Below are positions 34,148-54,108 of a DNA stretch of 64,000 bases, piece after piece. The first letter of the stretch is position 1. Every line of letters begins with the position of its first letter. Origin of the DNA: an uncultured Actinomycetota bacterium (GTDB lineage Bacteria > Actinomycetota > Actinomycetes > JAHEKZ01); contig CAVQYR010000002.1 of NCBI GenBank assembly GCA_963718235.1, forward strand, positions 842,244 through 906,243, read 5' to 3'. A program made the position numbers and the translations under genes. The notes beneath the pieces are model-generated. The model was not told where the DNA came from. It ran no database searches and saw nothing but the letters and a program-made list of their open reading frames with translations.

Positions 34148-36364
34148 ATGGAGGGTCCCGACGTGCAGTACAGCGAAGCCGTGATCGACAACGGGTCGTT
34201 CGGCAAGCGCATCATCAAGTTCGAAACCGGGCGTCTCGCCCGCCAGGCGGCCGGCTCGGCCGTCGCCTACCTCGACGACGACACCATGGTGCTGTCGGCG
34301 ACCACCGCGTCCAAGCGACCCAAGGACCAGCTGGACTTCTTCCCGCTGACCGTCGACGTCGAAGAGCGCATGTACGCGATCGGCAAGATCCCCGGCTCGT
34401 TCTTCCGCCGTGAGGGTCGGCCCAGCGAGGAGGCCATCCTCACCTGTCGGCTGATCGACCGGCCGCTGCGTCCCTCGTTCGCCAAGGGCCTGCGCAACGA
34501 GATCCAGATCGTCGAGACGATCATGTCGCTGAACCCCAACGACCTCTACGACGTCGTGGCGATCAACGCTGCCTCGATGTCGACCATGATCGCCGGGCTG
34601 CCGTTCAGCGGCCCGATCGGCGGGGTCCGGGTGGCCCTGATCGAGGGGCAGTGGGTGGCCTTCCCGACCCACGCCGACCTCGAGCAGGCCGTGTTCGACA
34701 TGGTCGTCGCCGGTCGCGTGGTCGGAGACGACGTCGCGATCATGATGGTCGAGGCCGAGGCCACCGACCAGACCGTGGCGCTCGTCGCCGATGGCGCCCT
34801 CGCGCCGACTGAGGAGGTCGTCGCCGCCGGACTCGAGGCGGCCAAGCCCTTCATCCGGGCGCTGTGCGACGCGCAGAGCGAGCTCGCCGCCAAGAACTCG
34901 AAGCCGGTGGGCGAGTTCCCTCGGTTCCTCGACTACCAGGACGACGTCTACGTCGCGGTCGAGTCGGCGGCCTCAGCCCCGCTCGCCGAGGCGCTGACGA
35001 TCGCCGGCAAGCAGGAGCGGGAGTCCACCCTCGACGCCGTCAAGGCGCAGGCCGTCGAGGACGTCGCGCCGAAGTTCGAGGGTCGCGAGAAGGAGATCAG
35101 CGCGGCGTTCCGTGCGCTGACCAAGAAGCTGGTCCGCCAGCGGATCCTGCGCGACAAGGTCCGGATCGACGGGCGCACGCCCACCGACATCCGCAGCCTG
35201 TCCGCCGAGGTCGGCGTCGTCCCACTGGCTCACGGCTCGGCCCTGTTCGAGCGCGGCGAGACCCAGATCCTGGGCGTCACCACGCTGAACATGCTGCGCA
35301 TGGAGCAGATGCTCGACACGCTGTCGCCGGAGAACCGCAAGCGCTACATGCACAACTACAACTTCCCGCCCTACTCGACCGGTGAGACCGGCCGGGTCGG
35401 TTCGCCCAAGCGCCGCGAGATCGGTCACGGCGCCCTGGCGGAGCGGGCGCTCAAGCCGGTGCTGCCCAGCCGCGAGGAGTTCCCCTACGCGCTTCGTCAG
35501 GTGTCGGAGGCACTCGGGTCCAACGGCTCGACGTCCATGGGCTCGGTGTGCGCCTCCACCTTGTCGCTGCTGAACGCCGGTGTGCCGCTCAGGGCGCCGG
35601 TGGCCGGCATCGCCATGGGCCTGGTGTCCGACGAGGTAGACGGGAAGACCGAGTACGTCGCACTGACCGACATCCTGGGTGCCGAGGACGCCTTCGGTGA
35701 CATGGACTTCAAGGTCGCCGGTACCAAGGACTTCGTGACGGCGCTGCAGCTGGACACCAAGCTCGACGGCATCCCGGCGTCAGTGCTCGCTGGTGCGCTG
35801 ACCCAGGCGAAGGACGCCCGGCTGACCATCCTCGCCGTGATGGCCGAGGCCATCGACGCACCCGACGAGATGGCTCCGAACGCCCCGCGCGTGATCAGCG
35901 TGAAGATCCCCGTCGACAAGATCGGTGAGGTCATCGGGCCGAAGGGCAAGATGATCAACTCCATCCAGGAGGACACCGGCGCCGACATCACGATCGAGGA
36001 CGACGGCACGATCTACATCGGTGCGGTCGACGGCCCCTCGGCCGAGGCCGCCCGGGTTGCCATCAACTCGATCGCGAACCCGACCATGCCGGAGATCGGC
36101 GAGCGCTACCTGGGCACCGTGGTCAAGACCACGACGTTCGGTGCGTTCATCTCGCTGATCCCGGGCAAGGACGGCCTCCTGCACATCTCCGAGGTCAAGA
36201 AGCTGGCCGGCAAGCCCCGGATCGACTCCGTCGACGAGGTGCTCAAGGTGGGCGACAAGGTCCGGGTCGAGATCAAGGACATCGACGACCGCGGCAAGCT
36301 GTCGCTCGCCCCCGTGCTGGAGGAGGCGGCCGACGCCGCAGCCCCCGCCGAGGTCCCTTCCTGA
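34148..36364 (+). CDS. pnp: polyribonucleotide nucleotidyltransferase
   Basis: [40 protein letters not shown]; KH and S1 domains. Confidence 0.98.
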
Positions 36365-36366
36365 CC

Positions 36367-37713
36367 GTGGGTCGCCAGCGAACCGCCGCCGAGCAGCGCC
36401 CCGGCAGCACGCTGACCTTGCACCACGGGAACGACGGCTCCGTGGTCAAGCGAACGGTGCTGCCGGGTGGGCTGCGGGTGGTCACCGAGTCGGTGCCTGC
36501 CGTGCGGTCGGTCTCGTTCGGGCTGTGGGTGGGGGTCGGCTCCCGCGACGAGCGCCCGTCGCAGGCCGGTGCCACGCACTACCTGGAGCACCTGCTGTTC
36601 AAGGGCACCAAGCGCCGGTCGGCGTTGGACATCTCGGCGTCGATCGACGCACTGGGCGGCGAGATGAACGCCTTCACCGCCAAGGAGTACACCTGCTACT
36701 ACGCGCGGGTGCTCGACGCCGACCTGCCCGTCGCCGTCGACGTCGTCACCGACATGGTCACCTCCTCGACGCTGATCGGTGGCGACATCGAGTCCGAGCG
36801 CGGTGTCATCTGCGAAGAGATCGCGATGCACGAGGACGACCCCGGCGGCGCCGTGCACGACACGTTTGCCGCGACCGTGTTCGGACCCAGTCCGCTCGGT
36901 CGACCGATCCTCGGCAGCGTGGAGTCCATCGAGACCCTCTCGGCGGAGTCGATCCGTCGCTACTACCGCCGCTGGTACCGACCTGAGCATGTCGTGGTCG
37001 CTGCGGCGGGCAACCTCGACCACGCCACGGTGGTCCGCCTGGTGCGCAAGGCCTTCCGCGAGGCTGGGGTCGACCTCGCGGGCGACACCCGCCCCGCCGC
37101 CCCGAGGCTGGGTGGTCGCAAGCCTGCCTACGGCCCCACGGTGCAGCTGGAGCCACGCACGAGCGAGCAGGCCAACCTGGTCCTGGGCATGCCGGGGATC
37201 AGCCGCACCGACGACCGGCGGTTCGCCCTCGGCGTGCTGAACGCGGCGCTCGGTGGCGGCATGAGCAGCCGACTGTTCCAGGAGGTGCGCGAGAAGCGTG
37301 GCCTGGCGTACTCGGTGTACTCCTACAGCTCCCAGTTCGCCGACACCGGGCTGTTCGGCGTCTACGCGGGATGTCTCCCGCAGAAGCTCGACGAGGTGCT
37401 GGACCTCTGTCTGGGCGAGCTGGTCGAGGTGGCCGAGCACGGCATCACCGACGACGAGCTGGCCCGGGGCCAGGGTCAGCTGCGTGGTGGGCTCGTCCTG
37501 GGCCTGGAGGACACCGGTTCGCGGATGACCCGGATCGGCAAGAGCGAGCTCGTGCACGGCGAGCTGCTCGGCGTCGACGAGCTGCTCGACCGGATCGACG
37601 CCGTCACCCTCGACGACGTGCGCGCTGTGGCCGCCGACGTCCTGGGTGCCGCCCCGTCGTTGGCCGTGATCGGACCCTTCGAGCCCGACCGGGTGTTCGC
37701 CGCCGTCGGATGA
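36367..37713 (+). CDS. M16-family zinc peptidase
   Basis: Inverted zincin HYLEHLLFKGT, NAFT.KEYTCYY, GGGMSSRLFQEVREKRGLAYSVYS. Confidence 0.94.
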   Translation: MGRQRTAAEQRPGSTLTLHHGNDGSVVKRTVLPGGLRVVTESVPAVRSVSFGLWVGVGSRDERPSQAGATHYLEHLLFKGTKRRSALDISASIDALGGEMNAFTAKEYTCYYARVLDADLPVAVDVVTDMVTSSTLIGGDIESERGVICEEIAMHEDDPGGAVHDTFAATVFGPSPLGRPILGSVESIETLSAESIRRYYRRWYRPEHVVVAAAGNLDHATVVRLVRKAFREAGVDLAGDTRPAAPRLGGRKPAYGPTVQLEPRTSEQANLVLGMPGISRTDDRRFALGVLNAALGGGMSSRLFQEVREKRGLAYSVYSYSSQFADTGLFGVYAGCLPQKLDEVLDLCLGELVEVAEHGITDDELARGQGQLRGGLVLGLEDTGSRMTRIGKSELVHGELLGVDELLDRIDAVTLDDVRAVAADVLGAAPSLAVIGPFEPDRVFAAVG

Positions 37714-38480
37714 CCGACCGCCAGGGAGGCGCTGTGGTACGCGTGGCCGTGATCGGCGCAGCCGGTCGCATGGGACGAGCGGTCTGCGGCGCTGTGCGCG
37801 AGGCCGACGGTCTCGAGCTCGTCGCGTCGATCGACCGCTCCGGGTCGGTCGACGACGCCGTGGCGGCAGGCGCGGAGGTCCTCGTCGACTTCACCACACC
37901 GGCGACCAGCCCCGCTCTCGTGAGCGAGGCGGTCTCCCGTGGCCTGAACGTTGTCGTCGGAACGAGCGGCTACGACGAGACCCGGCTGCAGCAGGTGCGC
38001 GACACCCTGGCCCAGCACACCGCCGTTGGTGTGGTCGTGGCCCCCAACTTTGCCCTCGGCGCAGTGCTGCTCATGAGGTTCGCCCGCGAGGCCGCCCCAT
38101 GGTTCGAGTCGGTCGAGATCGTCGAGCTGCACCACCCCGACAAGCTCGACGCACCGTCCGGAACCGCGAGCCACACCGCCCACGAGATCGCTGCGGCACG
38201 CCGTGGCGCGGGACTTCCGCCGGCTCCCGACGCCACGACGACCACTCTGCCGGGCGCCCGCGGCGCCGACGTCGAGGGCATCCCGGTCCACTCGGTCCGG
38301 CTGCGTGGTCTCGTGGCCCACGAGGAGGTCCTCCTCGGCAACGCCGGCGAGGCCCTGACCGTGCGCCACGACTCCTTCGACCGCGCGTCGTTCATGCCCG
38401 GGGTGCTGCTGGCGGTGCGCGAGGTGCCGTCGCGTCCCGGACTGACGGTCGGACTGGAACCGCTCCTCCAGCTCGGCTGA
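37710..38480 (+). CDS. dapB: 4-hydroxy-tetrahydrodipicolinate reductase
   Basis: GAAGRMG, VDFT, ELHHPDKLDAPSGTA, RHDSFDRASFMPGV. Alternative GTG start at 37734. Confidence 0.96.
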   Translation: MTDRQGGAVVRVAVIGAAGRMGRAVCGAVREADGLELVASIDRSGSVDDAVAAGAEVLVDFTTPATSPALVSEAVSRGLNVVVGTSGYDETRLQQVRDTLAQHTAVGVVVAPNFALGAVLLMRFAREAAPWFESVEIVELHHPDKLDAPSGTASHTAHEIAAARRGAGLPPAPDATTTTLPGARGADVEGIPVHSVRLRGLVAHEEVLLGNAGEALTVRHDSFDRASFMPGVLLAVREVPSRPGLTVGLEPLLQLG

Positions 38481-38484
38481 CCCC

Positions 38485-38934
38485 GTGACCGCCCGCCGCG
38501 TCGTCTTCGTCCTGCTGCTGGCCACCGCGGTGTACCTGCTGCTGCTCGGCCAACGCGCCTGGCTGCTGCTCACCTCCGGTGAGCCTCTGGGTGTCGGGCT
38601 CGGGGTCGGCGTCTTGCTGGTCCCCGTCGTGGGCACGGTGCTGGTGGTCAAGGAGGTGCAGTTCGGTCTCGCCACGCAGCGCCTTGCTCGTCGGCTCGGC
38701 GCCGAGGGCGGGCTGCCGGTCGACGACCTGCCGCGCAGGGCCAGCGGTCGGGTCGACCGGGCGGCTGCCGACCAGGCGTTCGAGCGCTGCCGGGTCGACG
38801 TCGAGGCGCACCCGGACGACTGGGGCTCGTGGTACCGCCTCGGCGTCGCGTACGACGATGCCGGCGACCGACGTCGGGCCCGCTCGTCGATGCGCCAGGC
38901 GATCGCTCTGGAGCAGGCGCAGTCCGGCAGCTGA
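38485..38934 (+). CDS. small membrane protein with C-terminal TPR-like motif
   Basis: Two TM helices, then LPRRASGRVDR..AD..F...PDDWGSWYRLGVAYDDAGDRRRAR. Usual dapB neighbour. Confidence 0.85.
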   Translation: MTARRVVFVLLLATAVYLLLLGQRAWLLLTSGEPLGVGLGVGVLLVPVVGTVLVVKEVQFGLATQRLARRLGAEGGLPVDDLPRRASGRVDRAAADQAFERCRVDVEAHPDDWGSWYRLGVAYDDAGDRRRARSSMRQAIALEQAQSGS

Positions 38935-38955
38935 CCGTGCCCAGGCTCGGTGCCG

Positions 38956-39258
38956 TCAGCCGGCGACGGCGCGAAGCCCCGCGGCCACAGCAGCAGCGCC
39001 CACGACCACCACCAGGAACGGTGCTCGCAGCAGCAGGGCGACGACAGCGAAGGCGAGACCGGCCGCTCGGGCGTCGAGGACCAGGGTGGTGCCGGAGACG
39101 AAGACCTGGACGGCGGTGAGCGCAGCCAGCAGCGCGACCGGGACCAAGGTGGCGATCCGACGCACCCGGGGACGGTCCAGCGTCTGCTGGGAGACCGAGA
39201 GCCCGAGCAGCTTCAACAGGTACGCGCCCAGCGAGGTGGCCAGGACCGCGGGCCACAT
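38956..39258 (-). CDS. azlD: AzlD-domain branched-chain amino acid exporter subunit
   Basis: MWPAVL...YLLKLLGLSV...LVPVALLAALTAVQ...RAPFLVVVV. Confidence 0.85.
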   Translation of the reverse strand: MWPAVLATSLGAYLLKLLGLSVSQQTLDRPRVRRIATLVPVALLAALTAVQVFVSGTTLVLDARAAGLAFAVVALLLRAPFLVVVVGAAAVAAGLRAVAG

Positions 39259-39977
39259 CAGCCGCTCCCCGCCGGTGCGCGGTCCGGGTCTCCTCGGCGC
39301 GGCGCCGGCCAGGCGACGACGACCGCTACGGCAGCGGCCAGCAGCACCGGGACGCCCGGGGGGAGGAGTGGGGTCAGCGCGAGCGCCACGGCGGCGCCGA
39401 GGGCGGCGGTGACCCGGGCGTTGCGTTCGCCCAGCCGGGGCCACAGCAGGGCCAGGAAGGCGGCCCCGACCGCGGCGTCGAGCCCGAACGTCTGCGGGTC
39501 CCCGATCGCCTCGGCGCCGAGCGCGCCCAGGGCGGTGGCGGTGTTCCAGCACACGAAGACCGCCACTCCCGTCGACCAGAAGCCCAACCGCGCAGCGCGG
39601 GGACCGGGCTGGCTGATCGTCATGGCGGTGGACTCGTCGATGACGAGGTGTGCAGCGAGCAGCCGACGGGCGCCATGGACCTGCAGGAGAGGTGCCAGTG
39701 ACAGCCCGTAGAGCGAGTTGCGGACTCCGAGGAACAGGGCTGCGAGCACACCGGCCAACGCGGAGCCGCCCGCTCCGATCACCCCGACGAGTGCGAACTG
39801 GCTGGCCCCGGTGAAGGTCAGGCTCGACAGGGCCATCGTCTGGCCGAGGCTGAACCCCGAGGTGACGGCGAGCGCCCCGAACGACAACCCGTAGGTGCCG
39901 ACCGCGACGCCGATGCTGGTCGCGTCGACGAGGATCCGCCGGTGCTCCTGCCGCCGAGCCGATGCCTCGTCGGTCAC
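39258..39977 (-). CDS. azlC: AzlC-family exporter permease
   Basis: YGLSFGALA, FTGASQFA, RNSLYG, IDESTAM, GLDAA...FLALL. Confidence 0.9.
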   Translation of the reverse strand: MTDEASARRQEHRRILVDATSIGVAVGTYGLSFGALAVTSGFSLGQTMALSSLTFTGASQFALVGVIGAGGSALAGVLAALFLGVRNSLYGLSLAPLLQVHGARRLLAAHLVIDESTAMTISQPGPRAARLGFWSTGVAVFVCWNTATALGALGAEAIGDPQTFGLDAAVGAAFLALLWPRLGERNARVTAALGAAVALALTPLLPPGVPVLLAAAVAVVVAWPAPRRGDPDRAPAGSG

Positions 39978-40540
39978 GCAGGGTCCTGGCGCACGTCGGT
40001 GGCGAACCTCAGCTCGCGCACGACGTGACCGTCGAGCTCGACCGTCCGGTGCGCACCGTCGGGCGCCCATCCGGAGTCGACGAGCCAGGTGCGTGCGTCG
40101 TCGTCGGACGCCGGGACCCACGTCACGAGCGTGGGCACGCCGCCCGCGCGGACGAGATCGACCACGGCTGCCATCAGCCGGGAGCCGTGGCCGCTTCCTC
40201 GGTGCTCCGGGTCGACCACCAGGAGGGCCAGCTCGTCGGCCAGCGACTCGTCGGAGTCGTCCGCGGCCACGGTCTCGGACAGGTCCGGGTCGTCGGCGGG
40301 GGTGGTCGCCGCGCCCCCGACCACGGTGTCGCCGTCCAGCGCGACGAGCAGCCGGTGGCGTGGGGTGGGCGGAAGCAGCACCGCGCGCTCCCAGCTGCGC
40401 CGCATCGCGTCCGGGTCGAGGTCCTCGACGTCGGGGACGGCCCAGAGACCGGTCGGCAGCGACTGCCAGGTCCGTCGCTGCACCTCGACGAGGGCCGACA
40501 CGTCGACCAGCCGCCCGCGCCGCACGCTCAAGTCAGCCAT
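39974..40540 (-). CDS. GNAT acetyltransferase
   Basis: VDPEHRGSGHGSRLM acetyl-CoA-binding motif; GWAPDG. Confidence 0.85.
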   Translation of the reverse strand: MADLSVRRGRLVDVSALVEVQRRTWQSLPTGLWAVPDVEDLDPDAMRRSWERAVLLPPTPRHRLLVALDGDTVVGGAATTPADDPDLSETVAADDSDESLADELALLVVDPEHRGSGHGSRLMAAVVDLVRAGGVPTLVTWVPASDDDARTWLVDSGWAPDGAHRTVELDGHVVRELRFATDVRQDPA

Positions 40541-40589
40541 GGCCGCATCCTCTCAACCGCCCACAGGTGCGGGGCTAGGGTGACCCGCC

Positions 40590-41684
40590 ATGCGGGTCGT
40601 CGTCGTCGGAACCGGGGCCATGGGCCTGGCCGCGGCCCGCGTGCTCGCCGAGCGAGGCCACGACGTCGTGGCCGTCGACCAGTTCGGGGTGGGCAACCGG
40701 CTGGCATCGTCGTCTGGGGCGACCCGGGTCTGGCGGCTGGCCGATCCCGACCGGTCGATCGTTCGGCTGTCACAGCGCGGCGTCAGCCTGTGGCGTGACC
40801 TCGAGCGGCGATCCGGCCGCACGGTGCTGCTCGAGCCCGGTCTGCTGTGGCGCGGTGGGCACGCACCGGAGGTGCACACCGCGCTGACCGCGGAGGGAGA
40901 ACCAGCCGAGGTCGTCGGGCTCGCCGAGCAGCAGCGGCTCTTCCCCGAGCTGCGGCCCGACGCCGACCACCCGGTCACCTGGACGCCGCGGGCCGGCGTC
41001 CTGCTCGCCGCCGAGTCGCTGGCCATGCAGGCCGAGCTCTTGGTGCGGGCCGGGGGGATGCTCGTGGCCGGCGAGCGGATCCAGTCGGTGCAGCCCGTGC
41101 CCGGTGGGGGTGTCCAGGTAGTGGGCGGCCGGGCCACCTACGCCGCCGACGTCGCGGTCGTCGCGGCCGGACCCTGGGCCTCGGACTTCATGGGTCCGCT
41201 GGGGGTCGATCTTGCGCTCGAGCCGGTCCTCGAGCAGGTCGGCTACGTGCATGGACCGGAAGGGCCACCGCATCGTCCGTGCGTCGTCCAGGACGCGGCG
41301 TCCCCCAGCGCGCACCCGCTGTACGCGATGCCCAGCCCGGGCAGCGGGTACAAGGTCGGTCTCGACCGTCCACTGCGCGACTGGAGTGCCGCCGACCTCG
41401 AGCGGGCACCGGTCGCCGAGCGCGAACGGGCGATCGAGGAGCTGGTGCGCACGGTCTTCCCTGGCCTGGAGCCACGCCTCACCCGCTCGGAGGTCTGCAG
41501 CTGGACGGGCTCACCGGACGATCGGTTCGTCCTCGACCGGGTCGGCGACGTCGTGATCGGTGCTGGCGACGCGGGTGTCGCGTTCAAGCACAGCCCACTG
41601 ATCGGGGAGATCCTGGCAGACCTGGTCACCGGTGTCCGGCTCGACGCCGACGCCCAGCAGTTCACCCTCGCCCGGTTCGGCTGA
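40590..41684 (+). CDS. FAD-dependent oxidoreductase (monomeric sarcosine oxidase/MTOX-like)
   Basis: GTGAMG, SSSGATRVWR, AAGPW, VCSWTGSPDDRFVLD, AFKHSPLIGE. Confidence 0.85.
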   Translation: MRVVVVGTGAMGLAAARVLAERGHDVVAVDQFGVGNRLASSSGATRVWRLADPDRSIVRLSQRGVSLWRDLERRSGRTVLLEPGLLWRGGHAPEVHTALTAEGEPAEVVGLAEQQRLFPELRPDADHPVTWTPRAGVLLAAESLAMQAELLVRAGGMLVAGERIQSVQPVPGGGVQVVGGRATYAADVAVVAAGPWASDFMGPLGVDLALEPVLEQVGYVHGPEGPPHRPCVVQDAASPSAHPLYAMPSPGSGYKVGLDRPLRDWSAADLERAPVAERERAIEELVRTVFPGLEPRLTRSEVCSWTGSPDDRFVLDRVGDVVIGAGDAGVAFKHSPLIGEILADLVTGVRLDADAQQFTLARFG

Positions 41685-41745
41685 CCGTCGGCCGCCGTCG
41701 CTAGGGTGAGGACGTCCCTTCGAAGCGACCTGTAGGAGCTGTGCC

Positions 41746-42474
41746 GTGCCCGACGAGGCGATGCCGATCGAGTTCCGCAGCGACGTCACCGTCGAGCTCG
41801 TGCGAGCGTCGGCGCAGGACGCCGATGTGCTCTTCGCGGCGCGTGTTTCCACCCAGGGCGAGCAGTCGCTCGACGACGTCGGCGCAGACGCCAGCCGCTC
41901 CCAGGGGCTGATCAACTACCTGATGCGGGACCGGCACGGCTCGCCCTTCGAGCACAACTCGATGACGTTCTACGTGCAGGCGCCGATCTTCGTCTTCCGC
42001 GAGTTCATGCGACACAGGGTGGCCAGTTACAATGAGGAGTCAGGCCGTTACCGTGAGTTAAGGCCGGTGTTCTACGTCCCCGGCCCCGAACGCTTGCTGG
42101 TGCAAGAGGGCAAGCCGGGTCACTACGTGTTCGTCGAGGGCAGCGACGAGCAGCACGCCACGGTCGACCGGGAGACGCGGCGTGCCTGCACCGAGGCATA
42201 CCGGGCTTACCAGGCCATGCTCGATGCCGGCGTCGCCCGCGAGGTTGCCCGCGGTGTGCTCCCAGTGGCGACGTACTCGTCGATGTACGTGACGATGAAC
42301 GCACGGTCGTTGATGAACTTCCTGTCGCTGCGCACCAAACGCGAAGACTCTCGGTTCCCCTCCTACCCCCAGCGGGAGATCGAGATGGTGGCCGAGAAGA
42401 TGGAAGCGGTGTGGGCTGAGCTCATGCCGCTGACCTACGCCGCCTTCGACTCCGGCGGTCGCGTCGCACCTTGA
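41746..42474 (+). CDS. thyX: FAD-dependent thymidylate synthase
   Basis: HGSPFEH, RHRVASYNEESGRY (ThyX motif), NARSLMNFLSLR, QREI. Confidence 0.97.
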   Translation: MPDEAMPIEFRSDVTVELVRASAQDADVLFAARVSTQGEQSLDDVGADASRSQGLINYLMRDRHGSPFEHNSMTFYVQAPIFVFREFMRHRVASYNEESGRYRELRPVFYVPGPERLLVQEGKPGHYVFVEGSDEQHATVDRETRRACTEAYRAYQAMLDAGVAREVARGVLPVATYSSMYVTMNARSLMNFLSLRTKREDSRFPSYPQREIEMVAEKMEAVWAELMPLTYAAFDSGGRVAP

Positions 42475-42534
42475 CCTGCTGCCCCCTTGGGTGGCGAAGG
42501 CGTGACCTCGCCTGCGGGGGATAGCCTGACGACC

Positions 42535-43440
42535 ATGACGCGCACCGCCATGGAGCCCTTCGGTCGGGTGGTGACGGCCATGGTCACTCCCATGCACCCG
42601 GACCTGTCCATCGACCTCGACGGGGCTCAGCGGCTGGCGGTGCACCTGGTCGACGCCGGCAACGACGCCCTGGTCGTCAACGGCACCACGGGGGAGTCGG
42701 CAACGACCACCGACCACGAGCAAGAGCTGCTCGTCCGAGCCGTGGTCGAAGCGGTGGGTGACCGGGCGCTGGTGATCGGCGGCGCATCCAGCAACGACAC
42801 CGTGCATGCGGTCGAACGCGCCCGGATCGCCTACAAGGCCGGGGCCCACGGGCTGCTCGTCGTCACGCCCTACTACAACCGGCCACAGCAGGCGGGGGTC
42901 CAGGCGCACCTCGCATCCGTCGCGGAGGCTACGCCGCTGCCGGTCATGCTCTACGACATCCCCGGTCGCACCGGTGTCGCGATCGAGGTCGAGACCGTCG
43001 TCCGACTGTCGCAGTCGCACCGCCAGATCGTCGCGGTCAAGGACGCCAAGGCCGACTTCGAGTCCGCGTCCTGGGCGATCGCCCGCACCGACCTGGCCTG
43101 GTACTCCGGCGACGACGGACTCACCCTGCCGTTCCTGAGCATCGGGGCTGTGGGTGTGGTCAGCGTCGTGTCCCATGTCGCCACGCGGCCGCTGGTCGCC
43201 ATGGTCGAGGCGTTCCGGGCCGGTCGGGTCGACGAGGCGTCGGAGATCCACCGTCGGCTGATGCCCGTGTTCTCGGGCATGTTCTCCATCCCCGGTGTCG
43301 TGAGCACCAAAGCCGCCCTGGCCCAGCTCGGGTTGCCGTCCGGTCCGGTACGTCCGCCCATGGTCGACGCCACCGAGGTCGAGCTCGCCCAGCTCGTCAT
43401 CGACCTGGCCGACGGTCAGATCGAAGGGTTCCGCGCGTGA
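42535..43440 (+). CDS. dapA: 4-hydroxy-tetrahydrodipicolinate synthase
   Basis: TAMVTP, NGTTGES, VTPYYN, LYDIPGRT, AVKDA, YSGDD. Confidence 0.97.
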   Translation: MTRTAMEPFGRVVTAMVTPMHPDLSIDLDGAQRLAVHLVDAGNDALVVNGTTGESATTTDHEQELLVRAVVEAVGDRALVIGGASSNDTVHAVERARIAYKAGAHGLLVVTPYYNRPQQAGVQAHLASVAEATPLPVMLYDIPGRTGVAIEVETVVRLSQSHRQIVAVKDAKADFESASWAIARTDLAWYSGDDGLTLPFLSIGAVGVVSVVSHVATRPLVAMVEAFRAGRVDEASEIHRRLMPVFSGMFSIPGVVSTKAALAQLGLPSGPVRPPMVDATEVELAQLVIDLADGQIEGFRA

Positions 43441-44037
43441 GCCATCCGCACCCCGAGCTCGAAGGTCCGCCTCCACTCGCCGCCGGTGCGCTGCGCGTCG
43501 TGCCTCTCGGGGGGCTGGGCGAGATCGGTCGCAACATGACGGTCTTCGAGCTCGGGCTCGACGGGTCGGCCACTGACGGTCATCCGCTGCTCATCGTCGA
43601 CGTCGGGGTTCTCTTTCCTGAGGACCACCAGCCCGGAGTCGACCTGATACTTCCCCGACTTCGACTACCTGCGAGGTCGCCTCGACGACGTCGTCGCCAT
43701 CGTGCTGACCCACGGCCACGAGGACCACATCGGGGGTCTCCCCTTCCTCCTGCGGGAGCGGGAGGACATCCCCGTCTACGGGTCGAAGCTGACGCTGGCG
43801 CTGGTCGCCGCGAAGCTGCGTGAGCACCGGCTGAAACCACCGCTCATCGAGGTGGCGGCCGACGAGCGGGTCACCGCCGGTCCCTACGGCCTGGAGTTCG
43901 TCGCGGTCAACCACTCGATCCCCGACGCACTGGCCGTGGCCATCCGCACCCCGACCGGCCAGCTCGTGGTGCACACCGGTGACTTCAAGATGGACCAGCT
44001 GCCGCTCGACCGCCGCCTCACCGACCTGAGGGCGTTC
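43437..44037 (+). CDS. rnj: ribonuclease J, 5' third only (frameshift ~43650; cut at the chimeric junction)
   Basis: PLGGLGEIGRNMT, LTHGHEDHIG, VNHSIPD, HTGDFKMDQLPLD.RLTDLRAF, after which similarity stops abruptly. Confidence 0.92.
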
Positions 44038-44046
44038 GTCACGGTA
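44038..44046. other. junction between actinobacterial and methanogen DNA
   Basis: Abrupt change in GC content and codon usage. rnj (+) and acs (-) are both truncated here. Confidence 0.88.
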
Positions 44047-45524
44047 TCTCCATAGAAGGCTCTGAGCATGGAAGGCCAGGGAGTATTGCTGACGATGTTG
44101 CCTCCTGTGCCGGGCATAACTGGGTTGGCATCTTCATCGAGGATATCGACGTGAATCCGGGCAGTGGGAATGTCGGCGAGCCAGGCTTGAGCGGGGTTAT
44201 GGGCAGGGGAGACACCAGGAATGTTCCGGTCTCGGTCTGCCACCAGGTGTCCATGATCTGGCATTTGTCGGCGCCGAAATGCTTTCTATACCACATCCAG
44301 GCCTCCGGATTAATGGGCTCGCCACAGATCCACAGCCTTATGCTGGAGATGTCGTATTCCTTGGTCCATTTCTCGCCGGCCTTCATGAACATCCTGATGG
44401 CCGTCGGCGCTGTGTAGAAGACGGACACCTTGTTATCCTGGATGATCTTGAACCACCGACCAAAGTCCGGGAAGTCGGGAGCGCCCTCGTACATCATGCT
44501 GGTTGCGCCTAGACAGAGTGGGCCGTAAACTATGTAGGAATGGCCTGTGATCCATCCGATATCAGCCGTGCACCACCATACATCGTTATCCTTTATTCGA
44601 AGACCCAATGCAAAGTCTGAGCCGGTCCCACGCAGTATCCGCCATGGACGTGCTCGATGCCCTTAGGCTTGCCGTGGTGCCCCAAGTGTACAGAATGAAA
44701 AGCCTGTCCTCAGGGTCCATCTTCTCATTCGCACTCCTCAGACTTTCCAGCCACAAGGTCGTGCCAGTAGATATCTCTGCCCTGCTTCATGGGCACTTCA
44801 ATTCCTGTCCTCTTGACCACTATTACGTTCTGCACCGATGGAGTATTGGCTGTGGCCTCGTCAACATTGGGCTTGAGGGGGATAGGCTTGCCGCGCCTGT
44901 ACAGACCATCCGTTGTTATTACCGCTTTGGCCTCGGCATCCAGGATCCTGCTGTTCAAGCCACCGGAGGAAAATCCGGAGAACACAATGCAGTGAATAGC
45001 ACCGATCTTGGCGATGGCTAGCATTGCAATGGGCAGCTGGGGGATCATAGGCATGTACAACATGACTCTGTCTCCCTTCTTCACGCCCAAGCTCTTCAGG
45101 CCGTTGGCGAACTTGTTGACCTCCTTGTAGAGCTGTAGATAAGTGATCTTTTGAGTGGGCTGATCGGTGGGTTCAGGCACGAAAATGTAGGCTACCTTGT
45201 CCTTCTTAGCGCCCAATGCGTGTCTATCTACTGAGTTATAGGCCACGTTGCACTTGCCGCCCAAGAACCACTTGGCATATGGCGGTATCCATTCCAGGGT
45301 TGATCCCCAGGGCTCAAACCAATCGGCATAGGTCTTGGCCATCTCGCCCCAGAACTGGACGTAGTTAGCAGAACACCACAAGCGCAACTCTCTCTCTGTT
45401 TTGAACCCTTTCTCCTTCATCCACTTCATGACATTGGAGTTCTCGACGAGTTCCTTGCTCGGCTCGAATACTCTGTCTCTTCATATAGAACTGATGTTTT
45501 TGCCGTTGCTTTTTGCTCAGCCAT
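44046..45524 (-). CDS. acs: acetate--CoA ligase (AMP-forming acetyl-CoA synthetase), Methanothrix-like; 3'-truncated with several frameshifts
   Basis: [77 protein letters not shown]. Confidence 0.93.
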
Positions 45525-45840
45525 TTTAATCCTCCTTCATAAAATGATGTTTCCAGATTCCCCTCCCCTGTCATTTATGCAGATTTTTGTGGCTAATAGA
45601 TTAAGGACTGGGCCCTAACACACAGGGGGTCTCAGAAACATCATCACGATTGATAATTTTCATCATTAATAAGCTTGGTGGTTTGCAAAACCTTATATAA
45701 AATCAATATTAACAATCAGGAGAGTTTATTTTTAATCGAAGCCTACGTATTTTGGCTGGCCACCTACGGTAATCGAATATCCTTAAAAAATTTATTGATT
45801 TTTTTCTATATTTTACATTAATATACTCAATACGAAGAAC

Positions 45841-47138
45841 CTAGTCGCGATTAAGCGGGGGGGCTGCTCGTGCCGATATATAGAATGGGTTTGATCCCGT
45901 TACCTCGGCTTTAATGGAGGATCCGAGCTTGGGATTGCCCTCAACTACTATTCCCAGATAGTTGGTGGCCCTGGCCTTCATGGTACCTCTCCTGCCGCAC
46001 TCGGTGACCACTGCATCCAGAACCCTGTCCATGTATTCCCTGTTCCTCTTAGCGGCTATCTCCAGCCAGAGCCGGGTCAGCTCTCTCGATCTATCCTTCT
46101 TGATGCGGTCAGGCATGTCATAAAGAAGGGCCGCGGCCGTGCCCGGCCGCCTAGAGAATTTAGTGACATTTACCTTATCCGGTTGCAGGAACTTAATGAA
46201 ATCCAATGTCTCGATGAAATCGAGGTCCGTTTCACCCGGAAATCCTACAATGATATCTGTGACTATTGTGATCTCTGGATAAGCAGATCGAAAGGCATCC
46301 ACAATCTCTGTAAAATCCTTTGCCGAATATCCCCGGCCCATGCTCTTGAGAATTCTGTCCGATCCCGATTGGACAGGGATATGCAAAAATTTGTATATTT
46401 TCGGGCTATGAAATGCTTTTATCAGTTCCTCCTGAAAGGATAGAGCGCTATTAGGATTCATCATGCCCACTCGCAACATGAAGTTTCCCGGGACCTGAAC
46501 CAACCTCTCCAGAAGTTCGGCCAGATTTGTTCCCTGGTCCGATCCGTACGCCGCCGTATCCTGGGCAGAGATTTGCACTTCCACTATCCCACTGGCGGCC
46601 AGCTTTTCCACGTCCTTTATCACTTCATCGGGCTTGCGGCTGACCAGCCTGCCCGGGCCTTTCGAACTATGCAATAGCTGCAGCCTCCGTTGCATCCTTC
46701 AGCCACATTGACAATGCTGCAGAGATCCGGGGCAGGGGAGCGGACGGGGGAAGTAACAGGTGAAGAGACCGGGGAAGAAGGAGTAAGATGCCTGGCGGCA
46801 TGAGAGAAGGAAGGTGAATCCCCAAAGAGATCTGAGATCTTTGCGGCCGCAGATCCATTTAGCGGTCCCAGCCGCTCACGGCATCTTATCTGGCGGATCG
46901 ATTCCGGGAGCGCGGCAGGCAGGCATCCCGCCACCACCAGTCTCTCACTCTGCAGCAATTGAAGTCTTTTCCGGATCTTTCGTTCCGTCCTTTCCGTCAC
47001 AATGCAGGTATTCAGTATAACAACATCCGCCTCTTCCAGAGATGAAGGGATATGGCCCAACTTTTGCAGAGCCTCGGACGTATCCTGCGAGTTGCCGAAA
47101 TTCGCGGTGCAGCCGTAAGTCTCAATATGGAATTTCAT
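45841..47138 (-). CDS. tRNA methylthiotransferase, MiaB/MtaB-like radical SAM (frameshift ~46655)
   Basis: ETYGC, NTC, GC (UPF0004 domain), AEGCNGGCSYC (CxxxCxxC), HIPVQSGS, TDIIVGFPGET, TRAM-like end. Confidence 0.9.
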
Positions 47139-47152
47139 TCTAGAACTCGACG

Positions 47153-48241
47153 CTACTTATTGGCATTGGGATCTTTGCTGCTTTTCACCATGCTCTTCCC
47201 ATATTTGGCCTCAGCTATCTCTTCCTTTCTCACCTGGTAGATTCCTACTATTACCCCCATGATCGCAGGGGCCAGGAAGAAGCCGCCTATACCTGCCACG
47301 AGGGCGCCTCCCAAAAAGGAGAGCAACACCAGCAAAGGATGCAAAGAGGATTTGGCGGAGACCAGATACGGCCTGATGAGCAGCTCTGAAGGTAGGAAGA
47401 TAAGAGCTGAAGCCAGCACAAAGAAGGTCAATGCTTCCCCTAACCCCATTGTGAAATACCTATACGCGGTCACAGGGATGATAACCATCCAGGAGGTGAG
47501 AACTGGGACCATACCGGCCACGAAGACTATGCTTGCCAGGGCAAAAGGCCTGGGCAGTCCAAAGGCATAGAATATGAAAGCCGCGATTAAACTGCCCACG
47601 ATTGAAGTATAGATCGTGCCTATGTAGATCCCGCTCAGGATCCGATCGATGCGATCTATGTACTTTCTATAGGCTTTCATCTCTTCATCCGGAAGCAGAG
47701 ATATTATCGCCTCCACAAACCCTTTGCCATCCATCAGCACAAAGTAGCAGATAGGGATCGAGATGAGGAAGTTCATTATTCCCAAAAAAAACGTTCTTCC
47801 AATTTGAATGACTGGGATTGATGAGGCAAAGGGGGTGATTAAGCCCGCGGCATTCTCCAGGCCGGCGGTCAACAAATCCCTCATCCATGAAGGTAGATCT
47901 ATTGCTGTCTGCTGCATCAGGATGCCAAGCCCTGATCTCATTGCCTCCTGACTGCGGGCCAGAATTGCGATCTGGTTGGCGAGTTCCAGAGTTCCCAGCC
48001 CCAGGATAAGAAATATAGGGACGACTATGCAGATGGCGGCTACCAGTGACCCCAGCCTTCGATGTGAGCCGAATTTATCCCGGATGGGTCTGCCAACATA
48101 AGCGAAGACCGTGCCGAGGATGATGCCGTCCAGGAAAGGAAAGATGAAATAGACAATCATGAGCACTGCAGCCAGGGCTAGGATCAATATCCATCTGTGC
48201 TCCGAACACCATCCACCCAGATCAGAATCTTTATATCGCAC
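47153..48241 (-). CDS. AI-2E (UPF0118) family transporter
   Basis: Multi-TM; IRPYLV...LHPLLVLLSFLGG...GIGGFFLAP. Confidence 0.88.
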   Translation of the reverse strand: MRYKDSDLGGWCSEHRWILILALAAVLMIVYFIFPFLDGIILGTVFAYVGRPIRDKFGSHRRLGSLVAAICIVVPIFLILGLGTLELANQIAILARSQEAMRSGLGILMQQTAIDLPSWMRDLLTAGLENAAGLITPFASSIPVIQIGRTFFLGIMNFLISIPICYFVLMDGKGFVEAIISLLPDEEMKAYRKYIDRIDRILSGIYIGTIYTSIVGSLIAAFIFYAFGLPRPFALASIVFVAGMVPVLTSWMVIIPVTAYRYFTMGLGEALTFFVLASALIFLPSELLIRPYLVSAKSSLHPLLVLLSFLGGALVAGIGGFFLAPAIMGVIVGIYQVRKEEIAEAKYGKSMVKSSKDPNANK

Positions 48242-48346
48242 CAGAAGAGTCCTAGCTTTTCTGATAGATATGAGTAACGCTTATTAAGTCTTGATTAAGT
48301 TTCAAGTATGTTTGGCTCCGTAAGACTGTATGCGCGGAAAGCTAAC

Positions 48347-49459
48347 TTAGCTGCCTGCCAGTGCGATCATCTCCTCCAGTTTCTCCCGGGCCAAACTCGG
48401 GTCCCTGTTTTGCTCCGCCACCCAGGCTTTTAGCTTCTCTATGGGTTTACCACTGTCAATGATGTCCGCAGCCTTATCCATGCCCTCCCTCAGGTCAAGG
48501 GCACGATCCGTGATACAGAGCAATGGAGAGGCATTCAGACATACGATCTCTCTCCTCTGGCCCCTATCAACGCCTGAGAGGATCTGGAGAAGCCTTATCG
48601 CTTCCTCAAATCTATCGCCCTGGTGAAGGATGGAAGGCTCGTCTGCCTTTGCCACACCCAGATCTTTAAGAGTGATGGCATATTCTCTGATCATTCCGTC
48701 TTCGGTCAGCTCTGCCATATGAGTCAGGCCGAGGGTCGAGAGCTCATCCATGCCCCTGGCATCGTCTTCGCTCCGGCCGTGCACGACAAAAGCTTTTTTG
48801 TAGCCTATTTCTCTCATGGCCTGGGCAATCGGCAGGACCATATCTCGGCTATAGACGCCCCGTACTCCATAGACAGGCAGAGCCGGATTGGCGAGAGATC
48901 CGGCGATGTTGAGGATGGTTCCAAATCTGATCTGAGAGAAGATCCTGTAAAGGGCAGAAGGGTGCACTTTTCCGCTCATGCCGTTGAAGATGCCGATGCC
49001 CGCTTTTTCGATGCTTCTCTTAACCAGGCTGACATCGCATTCTACATCGACCCCAAGCGTCTCCAGAATGTCCACTGCGCCGCATCTGGAGGTTATGGCC
49101 CGAGCCCCGTGCTTGGCCATATTTATGCCGTCGGCGGCAGCCACAATCGAGGCGGCGGTGCTGATGTTGAAGGTCTTGATGGTGTCCATGCCTGTGCCGC
49201 AGTTCTCCACCAATGGGCCGTTGACATCAGGGTGAACCTGCACCGTGTCGATTTCGTAGATCGCTTCCCAGATGCCGGCAATCTCCTCGGCGGTAGCACC
49301 TTTGGCGGTTATAGCTGCCAGGAATGCGCCCTGCTGCAGGTCTGGCTGCTCATTATTCAGGATCTGCTTGAACAGATCGTTGGCTTCGCCTCTGGTCAGG
49401 CTCTGGCCTTTTATCAGCGCGTCCACCTTGCTTCCGAAGTACCTCAAATTCTCTTCCAT
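48347..49459 (-). CDS. trpD: anthranilate phosphoribosyltransferase-family protein (divergent TrpD paralog)
   Basis: CGTGMD..KTFNIST, AKHGAR, GMDELS and LNAS motifs of the TrpD fold. Lies outside any trp operon. Confidence 0.82.
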   Translation of the reverse strand: MEENLRYFGSKVDALIKGQSLTRGEANDLFKQILNNEQPDLQQGAFLAAITAKGATAEEIAGIWEAIYEIDTVQVHPDVNGPLVENCGTGMDTIKTFNISTAASIVAAADGINMAKHGARAITSRCGAVDILETLGVDVECDVSLVKRSIEKAGIGIFNGMSGKVHPSALYRIFSQIRFGTILNIAGSLANPALPVYGVRGVYSRDMVLPIAQAMREIGYKKAFVVHGRSEDDARGMDELSTLGLTHMAELTEDGMIREYAITLKDLGVAKADEPSILHQGDRFEEAIRLLQILSGVDRGQRREIVCLNASPLLCITDRALDLREGMDKAADIIDSGKPIEKLKAWVAEQNRDPSLAREKLEEMIALAGS

Positions 49460-49471
49460 CTTCTAATCTCC

Positions 49472-50534
49472 CTAAACCCCAAATAATAGATTTCAGACCA
49501 TGTCTCTGAGAAGAATGACGAAATGCATCCTCAATGCTGGAAAGGGTCGTCCTTTTGGTGATGATCCAGTCCGCCTTTACCTTTCCTGATGTCAGAAATT
49601 CCACTGCCTGTCTATTCTGGCGGCTGCTGCAGCCGTAGGCACCCACAATCATCTGCTCACGGTAGTGCATTGATCGAAGATCTATCGGCTCTTCGTAGTT
49701 TCCCGGACGCGGTCCGAGAAGATGCAGATTCTTCCGCCGGGAGCCAGCAGCTTGATAGGCTGCCGTCCACCTTGACCTCTGGAGTCGCGGTCAGGATGAC
49801 ATCGACTCCCGCTCCGACGATTTCGTTTTGAATTATACTTTCCAGATTATTCGATCGATCCGTCGACTGGTCAATCGACTGGTTAGTAGATTGGTCAATC
49901 ACTCTGGCGCTGGTGTGCTTTTCGATCGCTCGAATGCGTCCTGGCAATTTTTCTACTACCATGACCGACGCGGCTCCCCGAAGTTCTGCCAGGAGGGCGT
50001 GCATAGCGCCAATTGGTCCGCCGCCATAGATCAGGACGACATCTTCTTCTGAGACCCTTGTCAGCTCCTGGCCGTTTATGCAGCAGGCCAGGGGTTCGCT
50101 CAGCGCGGCGAGCGCCGGGTCGACATTTTCAGGCAGCAAGTTCGTGCCTCTGGTCAGGTTAACCCCCGTGCAGGGGCAGTATTCGGCGAAGCCTCCGTCG
50201 CAGTTGAATCCCATGATCTTCATATTCCGGCAGCGGTTGTCTGCCCCTCGCAGGCAGGAGCCGCAGCGTGCGCAGGCGATCCCCGGCCAGACCTGGCACA
50301 GATCGCCTTCTCTAAGCGCAGTCACTATCGATCTCGACAATCCTGCCTACAATCTCGTGCCCCAGGATGCGGGGATAAGCGAGGTCTCTGTGACCCTGCT
50401 GCAGCATCTTGACGTCCGTTCCGCAGACGGCGCAGGCTTCCAGCTTCAGCAGGGCTCCGCCCGGGGGGCACTCTGGGCCCGGGCAGATCCTCCAGCTCCA
50501 TGACTCCCGGGCTCTTCAGAACGGCGGCTTTCAT
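49472..50534 (-). CDS. zinc-dependent dehydrogenase (MDR family, threonine/sorbitol dehydrogenase-like), several frameshifts
   Basis: CGTD, GHE, CARCGSCLRGADNRC, EPLACCING, GGGPIG, IVGAYG across ORF pieces. 3' end approximate. Confidence 0.85.
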
Positions 50535-50555
50535 GCTGATAAATTCATATCCTGA

Positions 50556-51596
50556 CTATTTCCCGGGCAGCTCTACCGTCATCAGCACGCGGTCCGTCTC
50601 CTCGACGAGCTGCTTTTGCGTGAACCCGTAAAGGCCCGCCAGAAGGCTGGCTCCGCCCATGCCCACGCCCTCTTTGACATAGCCCTGGGCATAGATCTGC
50701 ACCCCCGGGATCTTGGATCTCTCCAGGCCCGGATCGGCATAGTAGTAGGGCCTGCCCACGGATTCCACTATCTCCCGGAAGCTGGCGGTCTTGTCGTCCA
50801 TGATATATTTCGTGGTGGCAATGGAGATATCGCCCTCCACTCCCAGGGCCTTGCCAAGAGCCAGCACGGCAGCCATCTGCGTTCCGCCCGCCAGGACGAC
50901 CTTGCAGCTTTTCAGGCCGCTCATCAGGCCGAGCGCGGCAGGCATCATGGGGTCGCCCAGCTCCTTGATCGCATTGAAGGGTTCATCCTTCGAGGCTGCC
51001 CAGGGAAACACCCGCTCTTGTCATTGCTTCTTTGACTACCTGCTCTTTCAGCTCACTGGGGTTGGAGGCAAAGCTGCTGCTCACATTTCCGCTGTAGCCC
51101 AGGGCCCGGAGGACTGCCAGGGCGGTCGTTGTGCCTCCGGCTATGGATTCGCCAATAAAGACGCAGTCAGAGAGCCTGGCGAGCTTCTTCCCAGGAGTTC
51201 GGCTCTTTCATACATTCCACGAGGACCGTCGACGGCACTCTGCTTTCGGATGTCGTTTCCGGCCTGGCCGCCCAGCTCGACGTAAGGAATGGCCGGCTTC
51301 TTGCGCAGGCCCGAGGCCACGAAGAGAGAGGGAATGCCGGTCAGGTTCAGGGCCGCCTTGGTGACGATGGCGGGGGTCGGCGAGCCGCCCGGAGCCTCGG
51401 GCAGCTCGGGCATGGTGATGATCTTGTTGGTCTCCACCAGTTCCGCGTCTGCGCCGGGAGTGTAGTCGGTCAGTTCAGGCGATGTTCCCGCGGCGGAAAG
51501 GCCCGGTATCTTGCCGGTATCCGAGTTGGAGATGATGCAGAGGAATAGAGGCCGCTGGGGACGCGGACCGAAATCGGGGTAGATCCAGTTTGGCAT
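50556..51596 (-). CDS. cobT: archaeal-type nicotinate-nucleotide:benzimidazole phosphoribosyltransferase (frameshifts ~51180 and ~51020)
   Basis: IPGLSAAG...YTP.ADAE, PTPAIVT, GESIAGGTTTAL, GDPM, LAGGTQMAAV, VKEGVGMGG. Confidence 0.88.
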
Positions 51597-51981
51597 GAGA
51601 TGTACTGCGTGAGGTTCCTGTATATTAAATCAACGCAACATTATTTAATTCAAGTGGGATTGTCTGGCGAGAAAGTGGCGTTGAGCGTGGGTGGGCTGGA
51701 GGGCTCCTGCGAAATGTGGGATCAAGGTTATGATCTTGCCGGATGGAGAGAGGATCGCAACTGAGATAACCTAGAGACAGCGCAAAATCATGGATGCCTC
51801 CAGGACTTGCTTGGGAGGGATAGATCTTACCGTTCATGACATGAAGGTGTCTTCCTGCGCCGTCCAAATGTTCTGTTATTGGCATCAAGAGCTAGGCAAG
51901 AACTGAAAATTTCGATCCAATTTACTGGTAATTGATCTAGGAAGTTTGCTCTATAAATCGCTACGCTGCGAACATATATTA

Positions 51982-52066
51982 TGCGGGGAAAGGGATTCGA
52001 ACCCTTGAACTCCTGCGAGAATAGATCTTGAGTCTATCACCGTTGGCCTGGCTTGGTTATCCCCGC
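51982..52066 (-). tRNA. tRNA-Leu(CAA)
   Basis: GCGGGGA acceptor stem, ATAGA-CT-CAA-GA-TCTAT anticodon arm, long variable arm, GGTTCGAATCC T-arm. No encoded CCA. Confidence 0.95.
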
Positions 52067-52592
52067 ATCTGCTATTGTTTCTATGTACCTGTACATGTGC
52101 GCACACCTAGCTGCTGCACAGTACCACTCTAGCAGAGATATATTTCATGCATAAAAAGATATCCTTTGATCTGTCCAGATCGTATGACAGGCTGAATTGA
52201 AGCCTGGCGTTATTCGTTATAATGGATGCTTGTGACGATTGGATTGAAATCAATGTGGAGCGACTCCGAGTAGTTAACGAGCTAAGCAACATCAACTATT
52301 GCCTATATCGCAAATCCGGCCATTGCCTCTTGCAGATGGCATTCAAACAAATCAAGCGAACCCATTTACAGATATAGAGGCAGAATATTGAACGAATCAT
52401 TACATTTAGTTCCGATCTGCCATCTTCTCAATGATGCCACATCAGCAAAGCAATTTATAAATTTATTTTTTTACTGAAATAAGATTGTACCTCAGGATCA
52501 TTGTTTACTGAAGGCAAAATAGGAACCAATCCTTGAACTCATCCTTACAGGAAAAAGTCAGCCCGCGCCCCTAGGCCCGCTCCCTCAGCCGC

Positions 52593-52748
52593 TCACGCAT
52601 CCACATGATTCACGCAGATCCAGTGATAGTACCCGTGAATCCCCGTGCCCGTGACCTCATCGAACTCCTCCAGCTCCTGGCCGCAGATCTCGCATACCTC
52701 GCCATCCGGAACCTCGATCTCGGCATCATTGCATAGTACAATTACCAT
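52593..52748 (-). CDS. 51-aa acidic zinc-finger microprotein (CxxC...HxxC)
   Basis: MVIVLCNDAEIEVPDGEVCEICGQELEEFDEVTGTGIHGYYHWICVNHVDA*. High-GC3 codons inside an AT-rich neighbourhood. Below the ORF-track cutoff. Confidence 0.68.
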   Translation of the reverse strand: MVIVLCNDAEIEVPDGEVCEICGQELEEFDEVTGTGIHGYYHWICVNHVDA

Positions 52749-52849
52749 ATTCAGGCTCTATATCTGTTCGCGAGAAGCCATGAACCTTTCGGCGTTTTTG
52801 AGCTTAATTATAGAAAATTTTTTAACTGTAGAGCGACCAAGTTGCTTTA

Positions 52850-53604
52850 ATGGATTTGATCTATGCTTCTTTGGCGCAGACTGCAGCAACTGCCATCACC
52901 AAGAGACTAGATTCTACAGGCAGAGTCACCGTGGGCGATATAGAGATTTACTACGAGGTCCGCGGCCAGGTAGAGCCATTGCTCCCTATTATGGGCCTGG
53001 GAGGCCACTCTCTTGATTGGGGATGTATCTTGCCTCAAAGATTGGCGGATGATCGCTATAAGGTGATTATGTTTGATAATCGCGGCGCCGGACGGAGCGA
53101 TCGGCGTCCTGGCCTCTGCACCATTACGCAGATGGCCGGAGATACCGTTGGCCTGATGGATACATTAGGAATTGACCATGCCCATTTATTCGGAGGAAGT
53201 ATGGCAGGTATGATTGCCCTGCAAATGGCATTGGATCACCCAAAGCGCATCGATAAGCTGGTGCTCGGGGCCACAACTGCCGGCGGGAGATCCAGGACCT
53301 TTCCGCTGCCAATCTTGCTTACCCGAGCACGCTTGCGTCCTACGAAGCCCAGCTTGAGGCCTTTATGGCTTTCGATGTGGATGGGCGCTTGGATACGATT
53401 CGTGCGCCTACAATGGTGATAATCGGGAATCAGGACGTACTGATTCCGCCGCCAAATAGCTTCCTGATAGCCAGGAGAATCCCGGGGGCACAAATACGGG
53501 AGATTGAGGGAGCTGGGCATATCTTCTGGATCAGCCATTGCGAGGAGACCGTATCGATAGTGACGGACCTCATTTCATGGAGGTGCTTTAAAATAGCTTT
53601 TTGA
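52850..53604 (+). pseudogene. alpha/beta hydrolase, frameshifted and apparently lacking most of the cap domain
   Basis: IYYEVRG, FDNRGAGRSD, GGSMAG (nucleophile), then a second frame with PTMVIIGNQDVLIPP...GAGH. Break at ~53300-53340. Confidence 0.7.
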
Positions 53605-53669
53605 CGGCCACGGTCTTGTGAATTCAGGTAATCGCTAAAGGCATCGGAGAGAAGAACATTATAGCTCAT
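53575..53669 (-). pseudogene. truncated RelE/ParE-like toxin
   Basis: MSYNVLLSDAFSDYLNSQDRGRQKAILKHL resembles a RelE N-terminus, overlaps the upstream gene, then runs into antisense hydrolase sequence. Confidence 0.45.
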
Positions 53670-53862: not shown

Positions 53863-54108
53863 GCATTCTCCAGGAGAACACGTGATCCTCAATCTGCGAT
53901 CGATCTTCCTTTGAGTATCTATGGAGTAATAAGCCTCGTCTCAATTCGGACAACCAAATGCAGGGATGCTCTTGATTACTTCCACCAGCTCCCCTATTCT
54001 TGCGACAAATTCTGTTGTTCGTTCTCGCATTTTGCTTTTGCACAAGAGGCATTCACAGAATCGCATTTTCCGCAAGGTTTTCATACCCGGTTCCAGGAAT
54101 GATTATTT

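Follow-up and report, generated by a model that had tools for sequence, protein, structure and literature searches.

An actinobacterial rnj joined to a Methanothrix acs at the end of an Actinomycetota contig is probably the product of a chimeric long read

Introduction

Chimeric reads account for 1.70-8.17% of ONT data sets, interspecies chimeras included, according to an excerpt of the Meta-NanoSim paper (PMC10025935), and an excerpt of the myloasm preprint describes how a long chimeric read that is left unsplit can result in a broken or chimeric assembly (bioRxiv 10.1101/2025.09.05.674543). Misassembly is named as a source of chimeric contigs in MAGs in an excerpt of the GUNC paper, whose authors expect mis-binning to be the commoner error (PMC8201837). 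Genomic islands can likewise present an abrupt change of GC content and codon style, and may hold a tRNA gene inside the foreign block.

We analysed a stretch of 64,000 nucleotides (the window) from the assembly of an uncultured Actinomycetota bacterium, which consists of two contigs, C1 and C2 (3.17 Mb, 70% GC). The window corresponds to C2:842244-906243 and, since C2 is 906,243 bases long, represents the last 64 kb of that contig. At window position 44038|44039, actinobacterial sequence of 70% GC meets Methanothrix DNA of ~52% GC.

The locus resembles the interspecies chimeric long reads, and the contigs seeded by them, that are described in the excerpts cited above (PMC10025935; 10.1101/2025.09.05.674543): unrelated genomes stand end to end with no common sequence, at a contig tip, with read-level error in the foreign part and with the true path elsewhere in the assembly. 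It differs from them in that we infer the single-read origin, and in that an adapter remnant is absent. As in a chimeric contig of the type set out in the GUNC excerpt (PMC8201837), the contig has genes of two distant lineages (Actinomycetota and Methanotrichaceae) on either side of one switch point, although the error here is a join within a contig and not the mis-binning that the GUNC authors expect to see more often. The locus shares with genomic islands the abrupt change of GC content and codon style and the tRNA gene inside the foreign block, yet it has only one junction, no integrase, IS, att repeats or target duplication, and a host rnj that is intact in the same assembly, and its cargo consists of frameshifted core archaeal replication and methanogenesis genes.

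Results

A single switch of composition and ancestry

GC content ranges from 0.66 to 0.75 left of ~44040 and from 0.46 to 0.62 rightward, and stays low through the window end. The abrupt compositional change noted in the first-pass annotation is thus reproduced (GC 0.70 to ~0.52 at ~44040), and the tetranucleotide comparison it had proposed separates the two halves cleanly (r=0.39 versus r=0.95). Specifically, window 1-44038 correlates with the host bulk at r = 0.997, and the tail to the right of the junction does so at only 0.393 versus 0.948 with Methanothrix loci. Among 158 chunks of 20 kb, the lowest correlation (0.86) belongs to the chunk that bears the junction, and the next value is 0.938. 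Composition and taxonomic affinity therefore change together in one abrupt switch within one contig. Elsewhere, a 30-kb region of C1 (C1:1080000-1110000; GC 0.63-0.65) ranks second from the bottom in its tetranucleotide correlation with the genome bulk (r=0.938) and may be a genomic island.

The breakpoint and the foreign sequence comprise the following features:

44038..44039, no strand: breakpoint, between the last base common to C1 (44038) and the first base attributable to Methanothrix acs (44039), from three-way alignment and acs motif analysis
44039..64000, no strand: foreign tail of Methanothrix-like DNA, 19,962 bases, running to the contig end
44039..45429, minus strand: Methanothrix-type acs (acetate-CoA ligase; NF001208/TIGR02188), N-terminal ~467 residues, in at least three frames through indels of 1-2 bases
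45841-47138, minus strand: MiaB-like methylthiotransferase
47153-48241, minus strand: AI-2E transporter
48347-49459, minus strand: trpD
49657-51596, minus strand: ADH-like and CobT-like fragments
51981-52067, minus strand: tRNA-Leu(caa), without encoded CCA
52832-53601, plus strand: alpha/beta hydrolase
54109-57043, plus strand: Lhr-type helicase
57846-58430, minus strand: Mmp4 (methanogenesis marker 4)
58598-59560, minus strand: Mmp2 (methanogenesis marker 2)
60089-60553, plus strand: PCC-domain protein
60553-63998, plus strand: PolD large subunit, in five pieces, running off the contig end

The PolD large subunit, methanogenesis markers 2 and 4 and the CCA-less tRNA-Leu bear out the earlier description of the right side as archaeal. 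All 54 loci that were found with the acs fragment belong to Methanothrix, Methanotrichaceae, Methanosarcinales or an uncultured archaeon (74-98% protein identity, the 98% being to a Methanotrichaceae MAG). The tail is collinear with one Methanothrix locus (L015) over 44044-51687, at 91% and 87% identity, and the remainder matches the same genome (G001) at 82-96% DNA identity; long matches (over 1 kb) to three further genomes (G002-G004) are at 66-82%. Methanothrix-like DNA is confined to the tail, with 104 HSPs inside it and 0 elsewhere in the assembly.

The acs gene is incomplete. Against the NF001208/TIGR02188 cut-off of 657 for a full-length Acs, its three fragments reach 263.7, 247.9 and 27.5 bits, and together they cover positions 33-482 of the 649 of the NCBIfam model in three frames, so that roughly the last quarter is absent. 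The minus-strand reading (ending in [14 protein letters not shown]) stops at the junction, and the orthologue in L015 extends ~150 residues past this cut. The gene continues past the breakpoint in L015, L004, L006 and others, and for the missing C-terminus the assembly offers nothing closer than the host's own acs (51%). In reference Methanothrix loci (e.g., L004:10001-16039), acs is present as three tandem paralogues, and the window acs matches three places per locus at 71-78%; the truncated copy corresponds to the first of this tandem array.

Within the tail, window 51687-57805 is a patchwork, and in four Methanothrix-type genomes the blocks of the tail are spread over separate contigs or separated by hundreds of kb. 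These blocks are acs-cobT, tRNA-Leu with the hydrolase, a 325-base piece, the helicase, and Mmp4-Mmp2-PolD. There is a sharp internal switch at 53567|53568, where the 3' end of the hydrolase abuts a truncated small ORF. We considered a concatemer of several fragments as the cause of this scatter, which was not established. Three of the four internal block boundaries are intergenic, and G004 shows one of the adjacencies again in inverted form, with 3 kb between the helicase and the acs block. Because of these two observations we lean towards natural rearrangement in Methanothrix as the likelier source of the scatter, although the tail may be more complex than one fragment (a multi-fragment chimera).

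Were the junction biological, at least 20 kb of Methanothrix chromosome would have been inserted very recently into rnj in an actinobacterial subpopulation, living beside cells with an intact rnj. In favour of this stand only the presence of the sequence in the deposited assembly and the plausible co-occurrence of both organisms in anoxic freshwater-sediment habitats. Against such an insertion, the DNA is un-ameliorated: it is 82-96% identical to a Methanothrix genome and retains a Methanothrix tetranucleotide profile.

The truncated rnj continues intact on the other contig

To the left of the junction, the gene order on the plus strand is pnp, M16 peptidase, dapB, azlCD-like genes, GNAT, FAD oxidase, thyX, dapA, and rnj. 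Window 32965-44038 aligns in reverse complement to the final 11 kb of C1, and this part of the window comprises:

32965..38999, plus strand: pnp, M16 peptidase and dapB of C2, intact; the terminal ~5.5 kb of C1 match here at only 73-88% (93% in the 38000-38999 bin; 1-kb identity bins)
39000..44038, plus strand: true overlap of C2 and C1, reverse complement of C1:2254245 to about 2259280, with azlCD-like genes, GNAT, FAD oxidase, thyX, dapA and the start of rnj
43437..44038, plus strand: truncated actinobacterial rnj (RNase J), residues 1-200 of 570 (35%), split into two frames by a 1-base insertion, from ORFs, TIGR00649 and the C1 alignment

Left of the break, the 5,039 columns that align the two contigs contain 13 mismatches and 1 insertion (99.7% identity, 5 kb), and the last 383 bases are 100% identical. 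The match stops exactly at 44038, beyond which C1 continues with rnj and the window with antisense acs. The first-pass annotation had read rnj as normal up to ...LTDLRAF and as stopping at about a third of its length. The plus-strand reading does end in ...LTDLRAF, and the gene is cut after residue 200 of 570; it is not normal up to that point, since an extra C at 43656 relative to C1 causes a frameshift that splits it into two frames.

Scored against TIGR00649 / NF047419, the window rnj yields 115.4 and 30.9 bits in its two frames (model positions 2-179 of 546), well short of the cut-off of 400 for a full-length RNase J. The C1 copy scores 486 bits against the same TIGR00649 cut-off and encodes 570 aa with no stops. 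Relatives of this rnj are from Actinomycetota in 80 of 80 loci, 79 of which have a full-length gene (reaching residue 540 or beyond). The gene dapA is the immediate upstream neighbour of rnj in 65 of the 78 testable actinobacterial loci, and thyX is found within 2.5 kb of it in 26 of 76. Given this conserved dapA-rnj context and the full-length rnj of the relatives, C2 followed by C1 rebuilds the conserved locus.

A short-read contig of public run X1 has a match to the window that ends at 44038, and its 44-letter loose end is identical to the C1 continuation over the 30 letters shown. This supports the intact rnj path, though not independently of C1, since X1 may be the source sample. Both parents thus continue unbroken past the breakpoint elsewhere (rnj in C1 and X1; acs in L015, L004, and L006), as the earlier call for a search for intact continuations had anticipated: rnj on C1, identical up to the breakpoint, and on the public short-read contig, and acs in Methanothrix loci. 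An intact rnj in the same assembly and on a short-read contig speaks against an insertion into this gene.

The join is blunt

The acs side of the join was resolved from 123 instances of an Acs motif in 54 Methanothrix-type loci. Identity of the motif to the window is 36/36 in L006 and 35/36 in L004 and L019 (orthologous copies), and in orthologous Methanothrix copies the motif then reads D-T-V/E-R-Y-Q. The window letters ACC GTG A supply Thr and Val of acs and the opening base of its Arg codon. They fit the orthologous genes, so that acs-derived sequence reaches 44039 and rnj-derived sequence extends up to 44038. The parents are unlike each other at the bases adjoining the breakpoint, both in the three-way alignment and in the acs motif comparison. 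The join is blunt, with zero filler and zero microhomology.

Two details of the first-pass annotation do not survive this comparison. It had placed the start of acs at ~44046, which is to the right of the acs-derived base 44039, and it had proposed GCGTTC as a short microhomology shared by rnj and acs; that motif is 5 bases off and out of frame with the V/E-R codons of acs (44042-44037). A comparison with L015 had also left 44039-44043 as five unassignable filler bases, an assignment ruled out by the orthologous acs copies that read D-T-V-R.

There are no Ns or linker at the join, and no adapter remnant. No meaningful repeat flanks it; the repeats around the join are short and of low identity. 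A 16-base exact direct repeat at 43441 and 43939 has both copies within rnj, and a 26-base, 73%-complementary inverted pair at 43722 and 44202 is one among 40 such pairs. We judged both to be chance occurrences and not junction signals. A search of 122 frames (70 aa or longer) in 44039-64000 and of 56 frames (100 aa or longer) in 34001-44038 gave no integrase, transposase or recombinase domain in any of them. With no flanking repeat and a blunt join, the earlier statement that integrase, IS, att repeat and target duplication are all missing holds.

These observations weigh further against a real insertion. A genomic island would have two host junctions, and here the tail runs to the contig end, with no Methanothrix-like HSP elsewhere in the assembly; mobility genes, att-type repeats and a target-site duplication are likewise missing from the frames and flanks searched. 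Both genes are cut in a mid-codon region at a blunt join. Titles and the opening parts of abstracts retrieved by a literature search on Methanothrix, Actinobacteria and acetyl-CoA synthetase transfer contain no such report. We regard a real insertion as extremely improbable. If true, it would show DNA uptake by a bacterium from an archaeon, through illegitimate end joining, at a stage that precedes any amelioration or selection.

The same bases help to tell apart two technical routes to the join. It could have been produced without a chimeric molecule, through graph traversal, polishing or scaffolding, or through later concatenation with an unrelated low-coverage Methanothrix contig. Errors of overlap or graph normally need common sequence, and the parents share not one base of microhomology at the join. 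Otherwise the tail resembles the host only in acs, which matches at 69% the acs of the host at a distant position on C1, and the Ns or linker that might mark a technical join are absent. With no common sequence between the parents at the join, such an error is less likely than a read that already held both pieces. The absence of an adapter, together with the blunt join, fits a ligation-type chimera; adapter absence by itself argues against an unsplit read of two molecules, not against a ligation chimera.

Both contigs end in conflicting tips

The identity between C2 and C1 switches within 38000-38999 (~38,500), and left of ~38,500 the differences of C1 from C2 are mostly substitutions. The pnp gene scores 1355 bits and is intact in the window versus two fragments on C1. 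The corresponding end of C1 (L065:9800-15288, i.e., C1:~2259800-2265288, opposite window 32965-38500) holds a substitution-rich divergent copy of pnp, M16 peptidase and dapB and forms a second conflicting tip, which probably derives from a related actinobacterium.

Each contig thus overruns the true overlap of ~5.5 kb with a tip that conflicts with the other, which explains why the assembler broke here and how a stray read could extend C2. The messy tips on both contigs also show that the graph was tangled at this locus, and this favours an assembler join without a chimeric molecule, as does the naming of misassembly as a source of chimeric contigs in the GUNC excerpt (PMC8201837).

The opposite end of C2 (L064:1-10000, C2:1-10000) has a GC content of 0.60-0.64 versus 0.70; its genes include those for a GT4 glycosyltransferase and an FkbM methyltransferase, and an NDP-sugar dehydrogenase gene in fragments. 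We considered this region as a second foreign block; with this gene content, these first 10 kb are plausibly a native variable surface-polysaccharide locus, or alternatively another low-quality tip.

The tail carries the error load of raw reads

In five primary alignments of the tail to its G001 counterparts (16,463 columns; one alignment to a paralogous acs copy is left out of the count), 49 of the 51 indel events have a length that is no multiple of three. The 5 kb of actinobacterial sequence left of the join contain, in contrast, 1 indel. Genes broken by indels are acs, the helicase, PolD and the MiaB-like gene. In run X3, the short-read contigs, which come from a close relative, also differ by single bases in this manner. 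Compared with the closest genome, the frame-breaking indels are biased in direction: deletions account for 14 of 16 events at 44.0-48.3 kb, and insertions for 8 of 8 at 60.2-64.0 kb.

By these alignments, the tail is of raw-read quality. Core archaeal genes riddled with frameshifts (PolD and the methanogenesis markers) are a further point against a real insertion. The noisy tail, its terminal position and the intact alternative path, which show an artefact, also fit an assembler join.

Public read data

Among the 22 runs listed, the best share is 0.25 of 205 sampled words (window 43040-45040), and none reaches half. The best holders of parts of the stretch among these runs are freshwater and sediment metagenomes, with shares of at most 0.25. 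Across 37000-53000 in X1-X4, 0 of the 32 contig pieces listed and no listed joint bridge 44038|44039, a result from short contigs that carries no weight as evidence. The same is true of the thin coverage of the tail in X1, X2, and X4 among the pieces listed.

Discussion

The junction is almost certainly a technical artefact of one kind or another and not a case of inter-domain gene transfer. The proposal that it reflects a chimeric read or mis-join is upheld by the contig-terminal position of the tail, the intact rnj on C1, and the raw-read quality of the foreign sequence. We assign a probability of about 0.72 to the reading that the join arose in a chimeric read or molecule at the tip of a long-read contig. 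A single chimeric read appears favoured over an error of assembly or post-processing by about 3:1, and the join looks like a ligation-type chimera made in library preparation. An assembler or post-processing join without any chimeric molecule seems a good deal less probable, notwithstanding the messy tips on both contigs.

In the real chromosome the locus runs from pnp, M16 peptidase and dapB through thyX and dapA to a full-length rnj, so that C2 should continue into the reverse complement of C1. Conflicting tips on both contigs would have blocked the merging of C2 with C1. On the favoured reading, C2 would then have gained its tail from a chimeric read or molecule, made of an actinobacterial piece ending in rnj and, joined blunt to it, a Methanothrix piece starting in acs. 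The Methanothrix strain would have been covered by one or very few reads, leaving the tail unpolished and its raw-read indels in place.

As an artefact, the junction is biologically void, and its value lies in curation. The species-representative genome is rated 95.3% complete and 2.15% contaminated, a contamination estimate that barely reflects the tail. Automated surveys could misreport the locus as inter-domain transfer, as 'methanogenesis genes in Actinomycetota', or as an actinobacterium that lacks rnj. C2 should be trimmed after base 886,281 and the tail assigned to a Methanothrix bin; joining the trimmed C2 to the reverse complement of C1 would remove the contamination and probably close one of the two gaps in the assembly.
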